Below are positions 12,373 to 38,084 of a DNA stretch of 64,000 bases, piece after piece. Every line of letters begins with the position of its first letter. Position 1 is the first letter of the stretch. Position numbers and translations under genes: made by a program. This stretch comes from Escherichia phage RB49. Below the pieces are notes generated by a model, which saw only the letters and a list, made by a program, of their open reading frames with translations, searched no databases and was not told the DNA's origin. The stretch lies in the sequence record NC_005066.1. One strand, written 5' to 3'.

Positions 12373-14424
12373 TTACATTTTAAATTTATCTGGCATTGCG
12401 TCTACAGATACCAGATCAGCGATAAGCTGACGTAGAGTTGCCTTATCTGCTTTCTTACGTTCGGTTTTAGCTTCGCTAATGAAGCTGGAGAAAGACAGGT
12501 CAGAAGCAGGTTTAACAACACCTTCACGGATGAATGCATCACCGTCCGCGATCATCTCGCCAGATTCTTGTAATGCTGCCAGTTCATTTTTGTTCATAAT
12601 ATGTGCCTCAATGTAATAAGTTTCTTGTGAATCCGTCGATGCCGTAGCACGAGTTACCGTATCAAAGGATAACACAACACCGCGAGGAAGTAAAATCTCG
12701 CATTCTTTGTAAGCAAATGCTTTGTTACCTACTGGCAAGACAGGGATGTTTTCCGCGCCAGCAATGGAGAAAGCAACATTGGCGCCACCTTCACCGCGAG
12801 AGCCAGCCATAGAATCAACACCAGCAACGGCACTAGCCACGTTTGCATTCCAGCCGCCAAAAATGTTAGGTGCAAGGGAAGTGCTCACATAGTTTTTAAA
12901 GTAAAACGCTTTTTGCTTACGTGCAGTTTCCCACATTTGCGACCGGAAGTCCATACCACGATACAGAATAGTACCCGGATCAAGTTTAACGCCATAGTTG
13001 GAGAAGGCATTATCCAGTGCATCGCACATCTTGACCAATTCTTCTGGATCTGATATGCCTTCAAACTCTTCCAGCTTGCGGTCGGTTAGGAAGTTGTTCA
13101 TATTGATGTATGCTGCATCGGCATATTCGCTCAACACAAAACCTTCCGCGCCTGGCAGATCAAGATCAATATCTGCCATCATTTCACCCATGTTGCTAGC
13201 AATTGCTTCAAACATACCGGAAGCAACATTACGTAGGGCATCGGTTTTAATCTGGGTGATATGACTACGCAGCATTTCAGCTTTTACATCTGCTGGCATA
13301 GACTGGTCTACTCGATCCATTGCCAGGGCGGTGATCTTGTTTTCGAATACTTCCTCGCTCATGATTTCTTTTAAGCGTTTGACCGAGGCTGCGATAACTT
13401 CCGCAGACAACGGATCATATTGATCCTGAACTTTTACCAGTTCGCTTACTGCGTATTTTGCATCGGCTTCGCTTTCAAAAATAGTACGCATGAAACCATA
13501 GCGAGTGATAATATCACTTGTCCAGTCATTCAGAGAACGGGCGGTTGAACGTTCTAAGGCTTGACGGTCAATCAGAGTATTAAACTGTTTCTTAGGTTCG
13601 GCTTCGGTGATATCTTCTTCCGGTTTAAGATTAATTTTTTCTGGATGATTCACATAGTCGCTGTTATAGGTCGCTTGAGTTTTCAGCATTTCTTCTTTAG
13701 TCAAACGAGATTTAGCCGCTACGCGTTGTTCTGCTTCCGCGTTTCGTTCTTCTTCTGACACAAGACTAGCCGCATACGCTTCATCTTTAGTCAGAGATTC
13801 ACCAGTAGCCTTAGATACCCAGCGATCACCTAAATCACTTTCTACTTTAGTGAACAAGGATTCATCAAGTTTAATCCCTTTAATCTTATCAATCGCCATC
13901 CCGCGACGCTTGACAACAACTAAAGCGATCTTTTTGCTGGTCATTACTTCCTGCTGGAATACTTCAAACTTCGGTGTACGACGCACCAAACGCTCTATAA
14001 CGCGCTTAACCAGTTCGGTCTTACCTTTCATGCGGGATACGTTAAAACGGAACATAACAGCGTCTAATTGCGATTTACGGGCTGTTTCCATAACCACATC
14101 AAAAGCACTTGCCATGACTGCAATCGGGTTATCGCCTAGACCATTTTTAAGCTGTACAATACGACCGCTTTTGTTCATTTCGCACAGTACAACATGTGCG
14201 GTCTTGTCACCCATACGAATGATTTTAGGTGTTTTGTTGGTGAAGTTACAAAGACGGACAATCACATCTTTATCGCGTGTCTGTACTGCAAAAAGCTGTT
14301 TAGGATTCTGCTTAGGCTTTAAGCACTGTACCGGAGCAATACTGCCAAAGTTTTCTTCCTCTTCCGTCAACAGCCATTTCTCGAAAGATTCAATCATTAG
14401 ATCGTCGATTTCTAAGTTAAACAT
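12373..14424 (-). CDS. alt: Alt RNA polymerase ADP-ribosyltransferase
   Basis: 683 aa (T4 Alt 682); YRGMDF, FKNYVSTSLAPNIFGGW, ECEILLPRG. Confidence 0.9.
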   Translation of the reverse strand: MFNLEIDDLMIESFEKWLLTEEEENFGSIAPVQCLKPKQNPKQLFAVQTRDKDVIVRLCNFTNKTPKIIRMGDKTAHVVLCEMNKSGRIVQLKNGLGDNPIAVMASAFDVVMETARKSQLDAVMFRFNVSRMKGKTELVKRVIERLVRRTPKFEVFQQEVMTSKKIALVVVKRRGMAIDKIKGIKLDESLFTKVESDLGDRWVSKATGESLTKDEAYAASLVSEEERNAEAEQRVAAKSRLTKEEMLKTQATYNSDYVNHPEKINLKPEEDITEAEPKKQFNTLIDRQALERSTARSLNDWTSDIITRYGFMRTIFESEADAKYAVSELVKVQDQYDPLSAEVIAASVKRLKEIMSEEVFENKITALAMDRVDQSMPADVKAEMLRSHITQIKTDALRNVASGMFEAIASNMGEMMADIDLDLPGAEGFVLSEYADAAYINMNNFLTDRKLEEFEGISDPEELVKMCDALDNAFSNYGVKLDPGTILYRGMDFRSQMWETARKQKAFYFKNYVSTSLAPNIFGGWNANVASAVAGVDSMAGSRGEGGANVAFSIAGAENIPVLPVGNKAFAYKECEILLPRGVVLSFDTVTRATASTDSQETYYIEAHIMNKNELAALQESGEMIADGDAFIREGVVKPASDLSFSSFISEAKTERKKADKATLRQLIADLVSVDAMPDKFKM

Positions 14425-15542: not shown

Positions 15543-15872
15543 TTATAGTCTCCTGAATGGATCATCACGTAAATCAATATCTTTTAAGAACTCATCCCAT
15601 GAATGGCGGATATTGTTCTTAATTCTCCAGATAAGAGCAGGGATTGAACGCTCTCCCATCTGGAAGTATGGATCATATGATCCGTATGCCCAATATGCTA
15701 CTACAATTCCACAATCAGCGCAATAGTATTCTATTTCACTTGCTGGCGACCAAAGTCCATCAATATGATCGGTGATCTTGCTTTCGATGTTATGGCTATG
15801 ACAATCAGGGCAACGGATGCAATGACCTTGTTTATCGTAATTTGACGTTAGCGAATACTTAAACAATCTCAT
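15543..15872 (-). CDS. Zn-ribbon protein (109 aa)
   Basis: CIRCPDCHSH ... CADCG cysteine pairs; TAATG overlap with upstream gene. Confidence 0.6.
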   Translation of the reverse strand: MRLFKYSLTSNYDKQGHCIRCPDCHSHNIESKITDHIDGLWSPASEIEYYCADCGIVVAYWAYGSYDPYFQMGERSIPALIWRIKNNIRHSWDEFLKDIDLRDDPFRRL

Positions 15873-16588
15873 TATAGATCCTTATTTGCTTCAAATACTG
15901 CCTTTGCGAATCCTCGCGGGGTAAGTGACCTGATAGTCTTTGTTTTCGTTCCTTTCCCGCCTAGCTTAGAATGCTGTTTACTGTACCCTTTATTAATCTG
16001 CAAAGGTTTCTTTTCTGGCATTATAAAGCCTTGTCCGGTCCATAAGCAAGTCTTTTTCGGGTACATATCACGGGCGGCAATATACTCAGGAAAAGTAGGA
16101 TGTTTATCATCTTCCGGCAAATAACCGCCATATTCCCACGGATGGAACATATAATCAGGCTTACGCCACATGCTAGAGATAACGCTTACAGGATTCTCTA
16201 TCATGTAGGGAACTCCTATCCATTCACCCAAATAAGCGGTTATTTTAGCTGCCCTTACATCATGAACTTGAATCAATGGTCCTTGTTCTAGTTTCTTTCG
16301 TTCAAAGTGCGCAGCGCCACTAACAGCTAAATTGGTGCACGGTGGGAATGCAAAGATAATATCCGGTTTCCCCCATTCAAGGTCCATTGCTCTTTCCAGC
16401 CAGTTCAAATCAATCCAGGTGTTTACATAGGTAATGTTTGGATGTTCAAATCTGGTATTATATTTTTTGTATGTACCGTGGTCGCCATCGTCAGCATTAA
16501 AGCAGATCACCTTATGACCCGCTTTAGCCCATTCTAACCCCATTATCCCCGACCCGTCAAAGTTGCAGAATATTAATTTTTGTTTCAT
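15872..16588 (-). CDS. C5-cytosine DNA methyltransferase-like protein (238 aa, short)
   Basis: Motif I-like FCNFDGSGIMG..AG, motif IV-like FAFPPCTNLAVSGA, motif VI-like MIENPV. Confidence 0.55.
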   Translation of the reverse strand: MKQKLIFCNFDGSGIMGLEWAKAGHKVICFNADDGDHGTYKKYNTRFEHPNITYVNTWIDLNWLERAMDLEWGKPDIIFAFPPCTNLAVSGAAHFERKKLEQGPLIQVHDVRAAKITAYLGEWIGVPYMIENPVSVISSMWRKPDYMFHPWEYGGYLPEDDKHPTFPEYIAARDMYPKKTCLWTGQGFIMPEKKPLQINKGYSKQHSKLGGKGTKTKTIRSLTPRGFAKAVFEANKDL

Positions 16589-22282: not shown

Positions 22283-22603
22283 TCACACAAAATGGCGTGT
22301 CAATGCTTCTTTTGCGGTTCCGCTAAGACTTTCAATCTCGCCTGGCATAACATCAACCGCCAGAACTTCTACAACATCCTCGGACCCTAACCAGTGAGTA
22401 TGGCCTTTGTAGAACTTGATAACCAGACCACCTTCCTCGTCCCATTTAACGCTATCGCTAGCCCACCACACATCACCGTCGATAAAGTTGATGTAAAGCA
22501 CACTACGCCACATTGAATTAATTACTTTCAATACTGCGCCTTTCATCTCTTCCACGGTATGGTCTTCCATTTTGAAGACCTCACCTACCTGAACTTTTGC
22601 CAT
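22283..22603 (-). CDS. H-x-H-W family small protein (member 6)
   Basis: GHTHWLGSEDVVEVLAVDV. Confidence 0.6.
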   Translation of the reverse strand: MAKVQVGEVFKMEDHTVEEMKGAVLKVINSMWRSVLYINFIDGDVWWASDSVKWDEEGGLVIKFYKGHTHWLGSEDVVEVLAVDVMPGEIESLSGTAKEALTRHFV

Positions 22604-22620
22604 TTAGTCACCTCTCTTTA

Positions 22621-22800
22621 TTACATAACAATCACGCCAGCCGTTGAAAGTTGATGTTTCAACTGAGCATTTTCTGCTACCGTCAAATCAATGATTTCTT
22701 GTGACGCTGCAATCATATAGCCATTGGTGATATTGTTTTGCATCAGTTCAATGGTTTCTTCGTTGTAGCGGATTTTAGCGATGATTTCGTTGAAGTTCAT
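22621..22800 (-). CDS. small protein (59 aa)
   Basis: MNFNEIIAKIRYNEE...; track ORF is extended into the PeSL. Confidence 0.55.
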   Translation of the reverse strand: MNFNEIIAKIRYNEETIELMQNNITNGYMIAASQEIIDLTVAENAQLKHQLSTAGVIVM

Positions 22801-22872
22801 AATTGATTCTCCTAGTTCGTTTCGGTATGTGTGTAGTATAGGGGATCGGTGATCCCCTGTCAACAACTTTTT
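22801..22872 (-). promoter_or_regulatory. PeSL-like early promoter cassette
   Basis: aattgattctcc...tcgtttcggtatgtgtgtagtat AGGGGATCggtGATCCCCT gtcaacaactttttt. Confidence 0.65.
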
Positions 22873-23202
22873 TTAAAGTTTTTCCATGATAACGGTCATA
22901 ATTACATCTTCTGCGCGAGCTGTCAGATTATCAGCGTCAGCATGTGGGCGGTTGGTTGTTACAGAGATAACACCGTTGCGCACTGGTTTGATATTGATAT
23001 CAAGATGATCCGCGAAACGTTCGTGATCCGCGAAACGTTCGCCAGTTACAGAATGAATTTTGGTGTTAAATTCTTTTGCCAGTGCCTTGCGAACTTCACG
23101 AATCAGGATAGCGTTTTTCAGTTGGTTCTCCGCGCTCATGGTCTTCTGGGTGTTCATGGTTCCGTCGAAGTCAATCATTGGCAGCGTTACGATGTATTTC
23201 AT
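22873..23202 (-). CDS. small protein (109 aa) containing in-frame duplication ERFADH-ERFADH
   Basis: Track ORF preceded by PeSL. Confidence 0.55.
   Translation of the reverse strand: MKYIVTLPMIDFDGTMNTQKTMSAENQLKNAILIREVRKALAKEFNTKIHSVTGERFADHERFADHLDINIKPVRNGVISVTTNRPHADADNLTARAEDVIMTVIMEKL
23007..23042. repeat. 18-bp perfect-to-near-perfect tandem duplication inside coding sequence
   Basis: gatccgcgaaacgttcgt / gatccgcgaaacgttcgc, adjacent. Confidence 0.8.
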
Positions 23203-23285
23203 TTTTGATTCTCCGTTTAAGAAAGTGTGTTTCGTTTTGATGTGTGTAGTATAGGGGATACGTGATCCCCTGTCAACAACTTTTT
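23203..23285 (-). promoter_or_regulatory. PeSL-like early promoter cassette
   Basis: ttttgattctcc...AGGGGATacgtGATCCCCT gtcaacaacttttttg. Confidence 0.65.
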
Positions 23286-23289
23286 TGAA

Positions 23290-23634
23290 TTATTTTTTCA
23301 TGAGCTTAATGGCTTCTTCCATAGCCAGCACATTTCGATAGTTAGGGTATCGTGTTAGATCGTCATACATTCGCTTAAGGGTGGAAACTTCCTCAAACTC
23401 TGGGTTTTCTAGATACAGTTGAACAAATTGTTTCTCTACCATCTCTGCTTTTAGCTTGTCTGCTTGTTCCTGTTCATATGATTTAGTTGGACCCAACACC
23501 AACAAAATGATAAAGGTGATCAACGGGCTAATGATCAACGATAGGAGAACATAACCGATAACGCTACGGTTTAAACGGCTTGCGTACATGCCTACTAGGA
23601 AAACAAAAAGGATATAGATAAACAGAAAGAACAT
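23290..23634 (-). CDS. small membrane protein (114 aa, two predicted TM helices)
   Basis: Hydrophobic N-terminal half MFFLFIYILFVFLVG...LLSLIISPLITFIILLVLG. Confidence 0.55.
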   Translation of the reverse strand: MFFLFIYILFVFLVGMYASRLNRSVIGYVLLSLIISPLITFIILLVLGPTKSYEQEQADKLKAEMVEKQFVQLYLENPEFEEVSTLKRMYDDLTRYPNYRNVLAMEEAIKLMKK

Positions 23635-23641
23635 ATAATGG

Positions 23642-24115
23642 TTACTCCTTATTTTCTCGCTCGTACTTTTCGAAATAAAATTCTACTGGCTGGTCATGAA
23701 TTGACAGCAAGCCAAAGCGTTTAGCCGCTCGCAATCCCATATTGCGCTGAATGTACTTCTGGAAGTTCTCGCGTATACACTTACGCCAGTATTCTAAGCC
23801 CATACAGCTTTTATAAAGATTGCATTGCACACACGCCGGATTCATGTTATCAAGTATATCATGTTCCGGTTTATGCATTCCTACAACCTTATACTTCCAC
23901 GATCCATCATCATTACGGGCAATTCGTCCATTTTCATCATAGACTACCTTTGAGCGTCGCAATACTGGTTTGATGTGGTCTGCGTGCCAGCGATCCCCTA
24001 GTTCCTCGCCACAATAGGCACAACGTCCACCATATTTCATTTTCAGGATCTGGCGTTGCTCTTTCTTTGACAATTTTTTAGGTTTAGGGGCTTTCGCCCC
24101 TTCATTATCACACAT
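23642..24115 (-). CDS. HNH endonuclease (157 aa)
   Basis: CAYCGEELGDRWHADHIKP ... NMNPACVQCN: CxxC-HxDH-N-CxxC HNH signature; overlaps 3' end of ligase gene. Confidence 0.75.
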   Translation of the reverse strand: MCDNEGAKAPKPKKLSKKEQRQILKMKYGGRCAYCGEELGDRWHADHIKPVLRRSKVVYDENGRIARNDDGSWKYKVVGMHKPEHDILDNMNPACVQCNLYKSCMGLEYWRKCIRENFQKYIQRNMGLRAAKRFGLLSIHDQPVEFYFEKYERENKE

Positions 24116-25604
24116 CGAATACCTCTTTTACTGTATTTGCAGTGGTCTTGTCGTAGCGAATACGTTTGATGATTGGGAGAAATAAAGAGAACTCCGGTTC
24201 ATCTTCTTTACGTGATTTGCTGCGGATATACCCGTTGCATGTCATCTCAATGACTTTTCCAATCAGGTTATGACGGTCAGTCCATAACATTTCTCGGTCG
24301 AGTTCATTTCGACGATCGAACGGAATTACACGTTCAGTACCATCATCACCTTTTTCGGTTGTAGTGTCGGTTAATCCCGATCCGGTGTTAGTCATCATTC
24401 GTCCGCACGCACTACGGACAGTAAAACCGCCTACCTTATTGGGGTCTTTACTATGCGGATATACATCAACAATTTCCGCGTCGAAGTCAATCACTTCTTT
24501 AAATTTAACCTGATCTTTACTACGGCGATCTTCAAATACACCATGTAAATTTTTAAGGATAATACCTTCTAAGCCCATGTTTACATAGCGATGATATACT
24601 TCGCGAGCTTCATCTATATTGTTAACTACAGTGTTTTCGATTATCTGAACACGAGGATCGTTAAGTTCTTCAACAATCTGTTTTAGTTCTTCGAATCGAT
24701 CTTTATATTGCTTCGTTGCTTTCTCATTTCCGTAATACACATCACGGTCGATAACATCCCAGACAGTATAAACAATACATTGGGCTTCTTCTTTTGGAAT
24801 AGTTCCTTTAAGTGATTTGTTGAGGATACCATTTCCAGTCTGACGGTCTGCAACAACGGATTCTTTCACTGCTTCCGCTACTGGCGTTAATGGCATTTCC
24901 TCTTCTTCAAATATCCATGACAGAGTACCATCATAAACGCTCTCAACGAAGTTCTGCGCTGGTGTTTGCGAAAGGGTAGGCATATATACCAATTCGCCAT
25001 CTAGAACAATTCCACGGCCTCGTAGACGCTCTAAAACCGCAAACAAATCATCAAGCCCTTGATAGGTATTACCTGAGCGGGTATAGATTGCTAATGTTTC
25101 CCCGTCAATATCAGCCATACCACGAGCGCCATCGCTTTTAAGTTGTGCATACGCCGGATATTTGATATTGGCAATGGTCTTATCAGAACATGACGATGCA
25201 AGGTGGCACGGCTGCTGGGGGATCAGTTTCTTCCATACCTTGTTTGCAGTGGTAGCGGAACAACCGCATTCCAGGTCACGATTCAGGACCATCATTGCAA
25301 CTTTAGCATCATCTTCTGACAAGCAAGTCAGAGTATCGGTAACTAGCTGTAATGCTGCATTACCAGTTACTTGACGTGTTGCAAGTTTATTTTTAAAGAC
25401 CTGCAATGCACCGGATAAAGACAATACAGACGAATAGCGAGACGGTTTATCGTATTTCTTTACGCCAAACGTAACCTGTTTGCAATATGCCAGATAAAAG
25501 CATTCTTTCAGCGTTTCATTGCTCGCGGATTCTTTCAGAATCTTTTCTTTCAGCGATGTTTTGTCTGTTGCTGCAAGCTGATTAATGATATTAAGAATTG
25601 ACAT
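24108..25604 (-). CDS. 30: gp30 ATP-dependent DNA ligase
   Basis: Collinear with T4 DNA ligase (KYPAYAQLKSDGAR adenylation motif, RDLECG); track ORF begins at upstream GTG. Confidence 0.95.
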   Translation of the reverse strand: MSILNIINQLAATDKTSLKEKILKESASNETLKECFYLAYCKQVTFGVKKYDKPSRYSSVLSLSGALQVFKNKLATRQVTGNAALQLVTDTLTCLSEDDAKVAMMVLNRDLECGCSATTANKVWKKLIPQQPCHLASSCSDKTIANIKYPAYAQLKSDGARGMADIDGETLAIYTRSGNTYQGLDDLFAVLERLRGRGIVLDGELVYMPTLSQTPAQNFVESVYDGTLSWIFEEEEMPLTPVAEAVKESVVADRQTGNGILNKSLKGTIPKEEAQCIVYTVWDVIDRDVYYGNEKATKQYKDRFEELKQIVEELNDPRVQIIENTVVNNIDEAREVYHRYVNMGLEGIILKNLHGVFEDRRSKDQVKFKEVIDFDAEIVDVYPHSKDPNKVGGFTVRSACGRMMTNTGSGLTDTTTEKGDDGTERVIPFDRRNELDREMLWTDRHNLIGKVIEMTCNGYIRSKSRKEDEPEFSLFLPIIKRIRYDKTTANTVKEVFDV

Positions 25605-26070
25605 TTTCACCTCGTTTTGTTAAACGTTCACGAATATCATTGAGGATACTACAAAATTCCGATTCAGTCAATATAGTCTTTAACGGATCAGTTCCACCTA
25701 TGCTATGACGTAATTTCTTATTTCCGGTCGCGAGTAATGCTTTACAAAATTCTGGGTTATTCCGTGCCATCGTAACAAATGCCAGATGTACCAGTCTGTA
25801 ATAATGCTCACTCATTCGATGAATCGGGCGACCCTGAAAATATAACATGTGATTCTCAATCTTTTCAGTTCTTCCGGTTCTTTTTGCTTTGCCGCCGTGC
25901 ATCAAAAAGATTTCTCTTTGTCTCTGAGGGTTCTTAAATCTTAGCCCCTGTAAAAATCCTTCTGTGCTGTTAATATCGCAACCAAATAGACGGAATGGTC
26001 TTTTATTGAAATTACTCAATTCACCCGATGGATAAGGTCCACCCGCATAGATATCAATTTCAGAAGTCAT
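25591..26070 (-). CDS. NADAR (YbiA/DUF1768)-like protein
   Basis: LSNF..., STEGFLQGLRF, LLATGNKKL..GG pattern consistent with NADAR domain (from memory of family consensus). Confidence 0.5.
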   Translation of the reverse strand: MTSEIDIYAGGPYPSGELSNFNKRPFRLFGCDINSTEGFLQGLRFKNPQRQREIFLMHGGKAKRTGRTEKIENHMLYFQGRPIHRMSEHYYRLVHLAFVTMARNNPEFCKALLATGNKKLRHSIGGTDPLKTILTESEFCSILNDIRERLTKRGENVNS

Positions 26071-26224
26071 TGAAACTAATCTCGCTAATCAGAGAGAACG
26101 GATCATAATCGTCATTAGGAATATCGATAGTAATCGAATGAGGATTTACCCATACACCAAACTGGTCTTCTTCGGTGAATACTTCGGTATGGATTTCGTG
26201 GATGTTTACATTCATAGTTTTCAT
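26060..26224 (-). CDS. small acidic protein (54 aa)
   Basis: Hand-found ORF MKTMNVNIHEIHTEVFTEEDQFGVWVNP...; AAGGAA RBS; stop overlaps next ATG. Confidence 0.45.
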   Translation of the reverse strand: MKTMNVNIHEIHTEVFTEEDQFGVWVNPHSITIDIPNDDYDPFSLISEISFNDF

Positions 26225-29404: not shown

Positions 29405-30574
29405 TTACCAATCAATCTTATCAGCCGGAATAAGTTTCTTATAATTCCGTAGATAGTAAGTTTTCATTGAATCCATAATACGGTCATAATCAAGACCATC
29501 AAATGCAATCATCAGACACATGAAAATATATGCGTGTGCATCACCGTGTTTACGTGATTCGATAGTCGCATTTGATGCATATGTCTTTCTGTCTTCTCCC
29601 GCGTGTGCGTTATAAAATTCTGTTGCTGTCGTGAAGGCATTGCGAAGAATAGACCTGAATGCTTCCTCGAATAGCTCGATTCGTTCCAGTGCTTCCGGTT
29701 CGCCTTCATATGCAGCACGCAAATCATCGGTTTCGCTTTCTACGACATAGTAGATCAGGTTATTAGGAAACATCGATGTGTTTTTAATGTTATGCACACC
29801 AATATACCATTCACTCTTCACCTTGAACATTTGACCGTCTTTAGTGCGTGCAACAATTCCTTCGATACCTTCTGCGATCCGAACTTCATCAAGAATATTG
29901 CTAAAACGCGCTGAATCAACCTGTAACGCATTTACCAGATGAGGACGTAGGATTGCGTCAGCAAATAGCATTTGATGCGGTACGTACTCTCCTGTGACGT
30001 TATGGCGTACATTCAGAAGTGTTAGCGACGGTTCAGAATATTCTACAACAATTCGGTTGCTGGGTGCTGTATATTCAAAGTTGAAAGTATAATCAGACCC
30101 AATATCAGCAATCTTAGCGCGTAGATCCGCATACTTCTCTGAATACAGAAGACCGTTTGCTCTCTCTGCCTGGCTTGAGTACAAGGCCGCTTTAGACTTC
30201 AACTGAACATAGCCATTATCAATGTATGTGCTTACTAGACTACCGTCCATTTTGTCCATGACCATTTCCACATCTTCCGGCTTAAAGCGAGCGCGATCAT
30301 TCTCACCCAAATTAAAAAACTTCTCCATAGGACGAGATGCAATGCGGACCGGACGACCTTTATCGTCAATTTCAAACATGATCCCGCGACACTCTAACGC
30401 ATCTGGTTTATTCCACATTTCCGGTTTGCTCAAGTACAGATAGCTAAAAATGCGCATACGGGTTTGCATCGCCGTAATTTCATCTTTGTAATAGAACGTA
30501 TCAGATCCGTCACATAGTGCCATCAGATTTTTGAACAATGCTAAAACTTTTTTGTTGTTTTCTTTTGTTGACAT
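29405..30574 (-). CDS. rnlA: RNA ligase 1
   Basis: Collinear with T4 RnlA (DALECRGIMFE, RIASRPMEKFFNLGEN, KMDGSL adenylation lysine, RKTYA). Confidence 0.93.
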   Translation of the reverse strand: MSTKENNKKVLALFKNLMALCDGSDTFYYKDEITAMQTRMRIFSYLYLSKPEMWNKPDALECRGIMFEIDDKGRPVRIASRPMEKFFNLGENDRARFKPEDVEMVMDKMDGSLVSTYIDNGYVQLKSKAALYSSQAERANGLLYSEKYADLRAKIADIGSDYTFNFEYTAPSNRIVVEYSEPSLTLLNVRHNVTGEYVPHQMLFADAILRPHLVNALQVDSARFSNILDEVRIAEGIEGIVARTKDGQMFKVKSEWYIGVHNIKNTSMFPNNLIYYVVESETDDLRAAYEGEPEALERIELFEEAFRSILRNAFTTATEFYNAHAGEDRKTYASNATIESRKHGDAHAYIFMCLMIAFDGLDYDRIMDSMKTYYLRNYKKLIPADKIDW

Positions 30575-30971
30575 AATTTGTGTTCCATTCTGGTTTAAAT
30601 TTGGTGATCAAAACAGGTTCTTCGATATCGGCAGTGCTTATAATATCCTTACCCGTTGGATTCTCGATGTACAACTCAAAGCACTGTCGGTAATAGAATG
30701 TTACTGTCTTACCTTCCTCTAGCGCCTTATGAATATTCTTACTCTTGCGAGTATCCGCTGTTGGTGTTTGTCTGTTAATGCTAGTCCGGTAATAATTGAT
30801 CCGCTTTCTGAGATTGACAGTCTGACCAATATATACCAGTTCATCATCAACAACAATAGCGTAAAGAACATTTAAACGGTTCTTCTGAGGCGGTAGAATC
30901 ACATCACCATCTTTACACTCTAAACATGAATATTTAACGAATCCATAGTTTTCTATTAGCTCATTAATCAT
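30510..30971 (-). CDS. denA: endonuclease II (GIY-YIG family)
   Basis: Collinear with T4 DenA: NVLYAIVVDDELVYIGQTVNLRKRINYYRT; C-terminal extension overlaps rnlA start. Confidence 0.88.
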   Translation of the reverse strand: MINELIENYGFVKYSCLECKDGDVILPPQKNRLNVLYAIVVDDELVYIGQTVNLRKRINYYRTSINRQTPTADTRKSKNIHKALEEGKTVTFYYRQCFELYIENPTGKDIISTADIEEPVLITKFKPEWNTNYVNKRKQQKSFSIVQKSDGTM

Positions 30972-36851: not shown

Positions 36852-38084
36852 TTATACTGCCATTTGAGCGGTGATTGCTGGATGGCTTTGATAGTTGTGA
36901 ATTTTAAAATCTTTCGGAGTCTTTGTCAATACCTCATCTAAAGATTTAAATTCCGGCAACTCAATTGTTGGTTTATCAAACGGAACACGGCTTAACTGTT
37001 CCATAACTTGATCAAAATGGTTTTTGTAAATGTGAGTATCTCCACCAGAGAAAATCAGTTCTCCTACCTCAAGATCACACATTTTCGCTATGATGTGAGT
37101 TAACAGCGCATAGCTGGCGACGTTAAAGGGCAAGCCCAAAAAGCTGTCTACGCTTCGCTGAAACCACATACAAGACAGTTTACCTTCATTGACGTAGAAT
37201 TGTACGAACGGATGACATACACCCAACACAGCATTATGTGTTCCTTGTACGTTCCATGAGTCAATAATGATCCGGCGATCCGTTGGATTGTTTTTAATTT
37301 GTTCAATCACGTTTTGTAACTGGTCTTCCCAAATCTTCGGGCGATAGACATATTCTTCATCGTCTTTAGTGCTCGATGTGTCTACGTCCATACTAGCAAA
37401 GATCGTGGTATCTGGTGCTAAAATATCCCCACCCAGATAATCACTATCAAGCAGATAACCGAAATAACCATCATCTACCCATTCCTGGAATCCCCACAAG
37501 CAATATGCATCATTAACAAAATTAGATTGAGTCTTCCAGTGGTCTGCTACTAAGAATAGATTATACTCAGAATCAAACTCTTCATAACGCATACCACGCC
37601 AGATAGCACATAAACGGTCTTCTGTTTCATTGGTTGGCGTAAAGTCTTCTACCCACGGGTGTTTAAATGTATGTGTATATTTGCTCTTAACGCGCTTAAT
37701 TTTGATTTCACCGTGTGGATGAATCGGTTTGCGTCGCCATGCCATACCATACATATTACCGACATTATAACCATTGAATCGCAAAGGATTCTTTTCTTTC
37801 ATATCAAGACAGTTGCCGCGCCAAATATCAAAGGCTTCCTCGTCAAACTTACCGCGTGTAATTTCCTGTAAGCGACGGCGGTCAAGTGATCCCTCCATAA
37901 ACCATAGCAACTCGCCAATTACAGAGGCTGTAGCCATCTTTTTAGTGGTCAGTAAGGGGAAACCCTTGCTTAAATCAATTCGCATCTCTGCGCCGAATTT
38001 AGAGAGCGTACCTACCCCCGTGCGGTCTTCACGAGGCCAACCATTATCAAGAACATCACGCAATAGTTTCAAATATTCTTTCAT
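36852..38084 (-). CDS. td: thymidylate synthase with ~125-aa internal insertion
   Basis: Collinear with E. coli ThyA at both ends (RTGVGTLS..., DRRIIIDSWN, CHPFVQFYV..KLSC.W.QRS.D.FLGLPFN.ASYALLTH, GDTHIY, AITAQMAV); extra segment residues ~125-252. Confidence 0.9.
   Translation of the reverse strand: MKEYLKLLRDVLDNGWPREDRTGVGTLSKFGAEMRIDLSKGFPLLTTKKMATASVIGELLWFMEGSLDRRRLQEITRGKFDEEAFDIWRGNCLDMKEKNPLRFNGYNVGNMYGMAWRRKPIHPHGEIKIKRVKSKYTHTFKHPWVEDFTPTNETEDRLCAIWRGMRYEEFDSEYNLFLVADHWKTQSNFVNDAYCLWGFQEWVDDGYFGYLLDSDYLGGDILAPDTTIFASMDVDTSSTKDDEEYVYRPKIWEDQLQNVIEQIKNNPTDRRIIIDSWNVQGTHNAVLGVCHPFVQFYVNEGKLSCMWFQRSVDSFLGLPFNVASYALLTHIIAKMCDLEVGELIFSGGDTHIYKNHFDQVMEQLSRVPFDKPTIELPEFKSLDEVLTKTPKDFKIHNYQSHPAITAQMAV

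Follow-up and report, generated by a model that had tools for sequence, protein, structure and literature searches.

A putative HNH endonuclease gene co-inherited with the DNA ligase gene in Escherichia phage RB49 and its relatives

Results

The HNH gene and its neighbours

We analysed a window of 64,000 nucleotides from Escherichia phage RB49 (NC_005066.1), one of the T4-like coliphages of the RB49/phi1/JSE group (Krischvirus). The minus strand of the window keeps the early gene order of T4: pseT, cd, 31, 30.3, 30 (ligase) and then a run of small ORFs. The gp30.3 homologue (25591..26070, minus strand) is the upstream member of a conserved block, 30.3-30-HNH. Gene 30 (24108..25604, minus strand) encodes an ATP-dependent DNA ligase of the T4 gp30 type, with matches to PF01068 and phrog_114. 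Its longest ORF begins at a GTG codon (24108..25610); the ATG annotated in relatives at 25604 gives a protein of 498 aa and was used here. The last gene of the block (23642..24115, minus strand) starts with ATG and encodes 157 aa. It appears in the ORF list and corresponds to ORF212 of RB49 and phi1, which the phi1 RefSeq annotation names 'HNH endonuclease'.

The sequence and the ORF list confirmed that a 157-aa ORF overlaps the 3' end of gene 30, and bore out the description of a freestanding HNH gene adjoining gene 30; the gene is intact and has a Shine-Dalgarno sequence of its own. Read from the sequence, the junction at which the two genes would be coupled occupies 24108..24127 (minus strand). 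The ligase stop codon TGA lies at 24110..24108 and the HNH ATG at 24115..24113, and 8 nt (ATGTGTGA) are common to both genes. The initial annotation placed the HNH start 8 nt before the ligase stop; this figure holds for the overlap with the stop codon included, whereas the ATG itself starts 5 nt ahead of the first stop-codon base. The Shine-Dalgarno sequence AAGAGG (24127..24122) lies within the 3' end of the ligase gene, with a 6-nt spacer to the HNH ATG. The whole Shine-Dalgarno/ATG/TGA junction was identical in 11 of the 11 Krischvirus copies compared.

Downstream of the HNH gene, RB49 carries ORF211 (23290..23634, minus strand), a variable cassette of 345 nt for a predicted membrane protein of 114 aa (phrog_25625). 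It is followed by PeSL211/210 (23248..23277, minus strand), an early promoter plus attenuator composed of TTGACA, a GGGGATC..GATCCCC stem-loop and TATACT, which closes the 30.3-30-HNH(-ORF211) transcription unit. PeSL-bounded cassettes were described by Arbiol et al. (2010), who found by experiment that PeSL211/210 is a strong attenuator with terminator activity (PMC2839356). The sequence GTTGACAGGGG, which represents the -35 box and the stem start of PeSL cassettes, occurs in six exact copies in the window (15006, 17138, 21709, 22854, 23267 and 58942, minus strand) against 0.46 expected, five of them close together in the hyperplastic region that immediately follows the HNH gene.

Some further features of the window were recorded. 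The thymidylate synthase ORF (td, 36852-38084, minus strand, 410 aa) has its Pfam domain split by an in-frame insert of ~135 aa (about residues 118-253), for which no family match was obtained. A 238-aa ORF (15872-16588, minus strand) resembles C5 cytosine methyltransferases at their N-terminus, the match being sub-threshold (E = 0.059), and looks like a short or degenerate methylase. Its probable counterpart in relatives, a C-5/DNA methyltransferase gene, is ~66% identical in nucleotides to that of Salmonella phage Sasha, and in Sasha a homologue of the HNH gene lies 400 nt from the methyltransferase gene. A denA-like GIY-YIG ORF (30510-30971, minus strand, 153 aa), with a Pfam score just under the threshold, shares 65 nt, as called, with the beginning of the RNA ligase 1 gene (29405-30574, minus strand). 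Beyond the hyperplastic region, at 12373-14424, there is a homologue of the T4-like alt ADP-ribosyltransferase gene.

Expression and the invariant run

No sigma-70-type promoter of quality was found from the ligase start down to the HNH gene. The T4-type late promoter (TATAAATA), which several T4 homing genes have as their own, was not present near the HNH gene either, and its five occurrences in the window are no excess over chance. Most likely the HNH gene is read from the ligase transcript. The overlap of its start with the ligase stop, together with its own Shine-Dalgarno sequence, makes co-transcription and translational coupling to the ligase very probable.

Over the 2414 nt from 30.3 to the HNH gene, the 11 Krischvirus copies have 210 segregating sites, and none of them falls in a run of 108 nt (24033..24140, minus strand) covering the Shine-Dalgarno sequence, the ATG and the first 27 HNH codons (p ~0.01 under random placement, ignoring codon structure). 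Next in length among the invariant runs is one at 25582-25638, where 30.3 and the ligase gene overlap. Inside the longer run, 14 nt past the HNH ATG, is a hairpin, GGGGCGAAAGCCCC (24100..24087), and the 121 nt around it are predicted to fold more stably than shuffled controls (z = -2.8). The eight codons of the hairpin are absent in one deeper lineage described below (L007) and varied in another (L053). We suggest that the invariant Shine-Dalgarno/hairpin region may be a translational control element that restrains a potentially toxic nuclease. A translational restraint similar in spirit is present in T4 mobE.

Motifs and fold of the HNH protein

The protein shows the complete HNH signature claimed for it, namely C32xxC35, H44-A-D46-H47, N90 and C95xxC98-N99. 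The four cysteines form the zinc finger and D46-H47 is the catalytic pair; these residues, as well as N90 and N99, do not vary among 40 family members or among five ligase-linked lineages. The match to PF01844 scored 27 bits against a cut-off of 21.4, and only profile positions 1-24 were aligned because of an insert. A much stronger match was obtained to PHROG 2118 (E = 2.7e-54). The C-terminal part is helical and family-specific, with an F146-Y-F148-E149 motif. The arrangement of the protein agrees with the beta-beta-alpha-metal fold of the HNH superfamily, and ORF212 is thus a putative HNH DNA endonuclease of the beta-beta-alpha-metal, Cys4-zinc type.

No recognisable NUMOD, AP2, HTH or other extra DNA-binding module was detected in ORF212. 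A sequence search of the PDB returned IscB/Cas9-like HNH proteins only, with E no lower than 0.18, and searches of NCBIfam and PADLOC gave sub-threshold generic HNH matches (retron HNH, PtuB, Cas9) that provided no functional lead. Membership in the T4 endonuclease VII family (PF02945) was considered and rejected, as ORF212 had neither a match to the profile nor a close structural similarity.

ORF212 was annotated before this study, and from 2006/2010 on it has been counted among the putative homing endonuclease genes. In Table 3 of Nolan et al. (2006), the 'putative mobile DNA elements' include RB49ORF212c, given there as an HNH endonuclease (PMC1524935), and Table 5 of Petrov et al. (2010) counts one 'other HNH' putative homing gene each in RB49 and phi1 (PMC2993671). 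Our literature search found no experimental work on ORF212. The new point of this study, a modest one, is the deep co-inheritance of the HNH gene with the ligase.

Conservation within Krischvirus

A Megablast search with positions 22800-26200 retrieved 58 phage records at 95-99% identity, with one 1.5-kb RB49 record at 100%. The ligase gene is complete in 57 of them and is a 1.5-kb fragment in the other; about five Krischvirus genomes are counted twice, as GenBank and RefSeq copies. The HNH gene was present in all 57 Krischvirus records with a full ligase, always abutting it, at 96.1-99.8% nucleotide identity, and it also followed the ligase in both Krischvirus contigs from IMG/VR. When IMG/VR and the JGI metagenomes were scanned for empty sites or additional ligase loci of Krischvirus type, no more than 2 and 1 close matches, respectively, came up. 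Among the 57 records, the two IMG/VR contigs and the four deeper lineages described below, no HNH-less allele was found.

The initial annotation had regarded the gene as typical homing-endonuclease-like mobile cargo and stated that this would be countered if every relative conserved the gene in the same place and nothing pointed to its mobility. Such conservation is what the 57 records exhibit. Within the clade, no relative that lacks the insert, and could be cut at the corresponding locus, appeared among the genomes compared. A presence/absence polymorphism does occur downstream of gene 30, but it belongs to the ORF211 cassette and not to the HNH gene. The description as mobile cargo suits the wider protein family in other phages; it does not suit ORF212 in the Krischvirus clade.

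Selection was measured by the Nei-Gojobori method on nine genomes, pooled. The pN/pS ratio was 0.022 for the HNH gene compared to 0.037 for the ligase, and the synonymous divergence (pS) was 0.13 and 0.11, respectively. With a pS close to that of the ligase and a low pN/pS, the HNH gene is therefore constrained and of the same age as its flanks. Purifying selection acts on it no less strongly than on the ligase. Conserved and with a dN/dS of ~0.02, ORF212 is a genuine gene and no chance ORF. Accepted homing genes behave differently in these phages: RB49 ORF040 and phi1 segC are sporadic among close relatives (PMC2839356), and the HNH genes of Makalu are likewise sporadic within the genus (PMC11611945).

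One candidate for a decayed HNH copy (L025; MAVA01000210.1, 1-1029), with three 1-nt homopolymer deletions in the catalytic core, was rejected. The 3' end of its HNH gene is joined to positions 22541..22703 of the window in inverted orientation, which marks this metagenome contig as a chimera of amplification or assembly, and its frameshifted gene as an artefact rather than a pseudogene.

The variable ORF211 cassette

ORF211 is present in 20 and absent in 37 of the 57 Krischvirus records, and was reported earlier to be unique to RB49 in comparison with phi1 (PMC2839356). On insertion it changed the final four codons of the HNH gene, from ...EREHQEK* to ...ERENKE* (junction at 23635-23654), and the new HNH end contains the Shine-Dalgarno sequence of ORF211 itself, AAGGAG. 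The distal ORF211 junction and the empty site share AAAAATAATTC. In the 37 records without ORF211, a PeSL (TTGACA, GGGGATC..GATCCCC stem-loop, TATAAT) comes immediately after the HNH stop codon. ORF210 is additionally absent in SSG23 and Makalu_002. In one genome (G2494), ORF211 is damaged by a 15-nt deletion and a 16-nt tandem duplication and appears to be decaying.

The C-terminus of the HNH protein reads E-R-E-H in L007 and L053, as in the ORF211-less allele, E-R-E-L in L056 and E-R-M-Q in L055. The E-R-E core common to L007, L053 and L056 points to the ORF211-less allele as the ancestral one. A PeSL, or a terminator with a promoter, stands right after the HNH gene in L053, L056 and L007 also; L055 had no PeSL at this place. 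The HNH gene is thus the fixed final gene of a conserved early operon, with the hyperplastic region starting at its stop codon.

Deeper T4-like lineages

In the phage collection, the next ligases beyond Krischvirus were at most 44% identical. A search of a large protein database supplied intermediate uncultivated lineages (L053, L055 and L056; ligase ~51-72%), and a fourth lineage, L007/L008, was found via the HNH protein itself. These deeper lineages are single metagenomic contigs, and orthology was judged from synteny and shared motifs. The contigs of L053, L055 and L056 carry 30.3-30 and then directly a gene of about 150-166 aa. Compared to the copy in the window, the HNH protein was 70% identical in L007/L008 (ligase C-terminus 72%), 87% in L053/L054 (ligase 72%), 59% in L055 (ligase about 60-62%) and 60% in L056/L057 (ligase about 51-55%). 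Over the ten lineage pairs, the identity of the HNH protein (57-87%) rises and falls with that of the ligase (52-74%), and that of gp30.3 is lower (51-60%).

The catalytic and zinc residues are all intact in the four deeper lineages. The motifs NLYKS, IQRN and FE.YER are common to the ligase-linked HNH proteins and missing in other family members. Farther out, in a T4-like contig whose ligase is 48% identical, the ligase is followed by alt, as in T4, and there is no HNH gene; four further contigs with 41-44% identical ligases had no HNH homologue nearby. In a tblastn search with 117 matches, the 40 non-Krischvirus ones listed were all in genomes of 12-62 kb. The simplest and most likely history would be one ancient capture at the base of the clade, followed by vertical inheritance.

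L053, L055 and L056 extend the RB49-like clade well past the named genus. They share 30.3-30-HNH followed by arrays of small ORFs, and L053 even has the same PeSL sequence type as RB49. L056 is a 169-kb ENA contig (k141_68074).

The HNH family outside the clade

Homologues outside the clade are 27-51% identical and 115-170 aa long, and occur in phages and prophages of many bacteria. The PHROG 2118 members Sasha gp76, HK225 gp55, eiAU-183 gp20 and Bas79 gp1 are 34-44% identical over ~85% of the length. Their settings are diverse: the Bas79 gene lies just upstream of the large terminase gene, that of HK225 in the nin region, that of eiAU between polymerase and helicase genes and that of Sasha near methyltransferase and ParB genes. 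The fLi-Aba03 homologue follows a helicase gene, further homologues adjoin integrase genes, and one is inserted between terminase and portal genes. In Sashavirus relatives whose flanks are 94-97% identical, the HNH slot is otherwise filled, for example by a 231-nt ORF in Bas82. A mobile, selfish lifestyle is plausible for the family as a whole, judging from these contexts, and the stable Krischvirus copy is an exception within it. A pairing with DNA methyltransferases in the manner of restriction-modification was also considered and rejected; the two genes are adjacent in only 3 of ~11 contexts.

Discussion

A probable resident gene

We believe, with a probability of roughly 70%, that ORF212 is a resident and selectively maintained HNH endonuclease gene that is not currently moving. 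We favour this reading because the gene is fixed at its locus, its synteny is deep, it was not found near the more distant ligase genes examined, it is under selection and it holds the end position of an operon, in contrast to the sporadic homing genes. A gene usually labelled as selfish homing cargo thus behaves here as a conserved core gene, and its linkage to the ligase predates the divergence of lineages down to ~55% ligase identity. To find an HNH gene adjoining an essential gene is, by itself, poor ground for inferring mobility.

The history that we propose starts with a small freestanding HNH gene from a family hopping among the early regions of tailed phages, which would have been captured once by the ancestor of the clade, and since then inherited vertically and kept for its usefulness. 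A selfish origin is likely because the same family is sporadic in Sashavirus and occurs in many unrelated contexts. The nuclease would be divalent-metal-dependent and, with a single active site, would act as a nickase unless it is dimeric. It would be made early, probably at levels restrained through the invariant Shine-Dalgarno/hairpin region, and would act in trans on DNA.

What the resident gene does is a more tentative matter. We rank first a domesticated ex-homing nuclease directed against non-self DNA, either of a co-infecting phage or of the host, which we regard as a possible role and put forward with reserve. A housekeeping partner of the ligase is ranked second, selfish homing third and a packaging function last. 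If a function is found, the locus would be a clear-cut example of a domesticated phage HNH gene.

A possible partnership with the ligase

The HNH protein might also be a housekeeping nuclease paired with the ligase, nicking and processing DNA in recombination and repair or at PeSL stem-loops, with the nicks resealed by the ligase. The tight and ancient linkage to the ligase and the probable translational coupling speak for such a partnership, and an HNH protein with a single active site resembles nickases such as the Cas9 HNH domain and the Gme HNH nicking endonuclease. The HNH gene is also conserved more strongly than gp30.3 and lies at the border of the hyperplastic region, where cassette exchange needs an as yet unidentified nuclease or recombinase (PMC2839356). 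However, gene order in the early regions of phages need not mirror function, other T4-like phages do without the HNH gene, and L055 lacks the PeSL after it that such an enzyme might process. We consider this role rather unlikely.

A bolder proposal is that the HNH protein is a clade-defining core enzyme which, together with the ligase, would make specific nicks or cuts in phage DNA, for instance at PeSL stem-loops, and so give rise to mini-circles and cassette shuffling, or else would serve as a self/non-self nuclease of these cytosine-DNA phages, with the Shine-Dalgarno/hairpin region throttling its translation. It is a long shot. Knowing the function of the HNH protein might also reveal which nuclease shuffles the cassettes of hyperplastic regions in T4-type phages.

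Possible continued homing

ORF212 could instead be an active freestanding homing gene that cuts the ligase region of HNH-less relatives and is copied into it by recombinational repair, the HNH-less population lying outside the sampled genomes. As a freestanding HNH ORF adjoining an essential gene, it resembles the mob and seg genes of T4, and it was listed as a putative homing gene on two occasions (PMC1524935, PMC2993671). Its family is scattered over unrelated phages, varies in presence among Sashavirus relatives of 94-97% identity, and includes a copy inserted between terminase and portal genes; in addition, a recombination breakpoint lies exactly at the 3' end of the HNH gene.

The distribution of ORF212 itself argues against this. 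It stands free between conserved genes as a freestanding homing gene would, but its presence is not sporadic: no HNH-less allele was seen in 57 records, two IMG/VR contigs and four deep lineages. Nor is its divergence decoupled from that of the flanking genes; it tracks the ligase in all ten lineage pairs, down to ~55% identity, which a cycle of invasion, decay and loss would not yield. The pS of the HNH gene equals that of its flanks and gives no sign of a recent sweep, no extra DNA-binding module was recognised in the protein, and the next nearest ligases, at 48% protein identity or less, are too distant for homologous repair. Ongoing homing into unsampled HNH-less populations would leave a signal of purifying selection as well. 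Overall, active homing is improbable, and some residual selfish behaviour may still be left in the resident gene.

Packaging

A packaging-associated HNH protein of the HK97 gp74 type, aiding the terminase in cutting, can be essentially dismissed on position: ORF212 is a small Cys4 HNH protein of similar size and the Bas79 homologue lies just upstream of a large terminase gene, but ORF212 itself has the ligase and ORF211 as neighbours in the early replication block, a long way from the terminase genes, and most homologues are found in replication or nin-type regions. T4-type phages package DNA by the headful with gp16/gp17, and we know of no requirement for an HNH protein in this process.

Comparison with known systems

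The closest known parallels are the freestanding HNH homing genes of the T-even phages (T4 mobA-E; compare I-HmuI and I-TevIII). Like them, ORF212 is a small ORF among conserved genes of DNA and nucleotide metabolism and is probably expressed from the transcript of its neighbour, and it has been provisionally classed with them (PMC1524935, PMC2993671). Unlike them, it is fixed in the genus and its sister lineages under strong purifying selection, and its protein, of the PF01844/Cas9/McrA type, is a Cys4-zinc HNH in which no NUMOD, AP2 or HTH module could be detected. In the survey of 2010, too, it was entered as 'other HNH' and not as 'mob-like' (PMC2993671).

With the other PHROG 2118 proteins ORF212 shares the C..C, H-A-D-H, N and C..C-N motifs and the F-Y-F-E C-terminus, and the starts of their genes also often overlap the upstream stop codon. 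Those genes are found in varied contexts and are present or absent among close relatives, whereas the Krischvirus copy is fixed in place and its product has a lysine-rich N-terminal extension. Compared to the HNH domain of Cas9 and IscB, ORF212 is a stand-alone protein of 157 aa without an RNA-guided partner and is only 15-22% identical. It differs from the terminase-associated HNH proteins of HK97 (gp74) and GVE2 in that it is not beside a terminase gene and its host phage is a headful-packaging phage of T4 type. T4 endonuclease VII (gp49) resembles ORF212 in being a His-Me finger nuclease of 157 aa with zinc, and there are weak PHROG matches to 'endonuclease VII'.

The Odn nuclease of ICP1 and the intron HNH nuclease of PhiKZ-like phages are formerly selfish nucleases that have been kept because they harm competing DNA. 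They provide a precedent for a domesticated nuclease in virus-virus conflict, and ORF212 may have taken a similar course.
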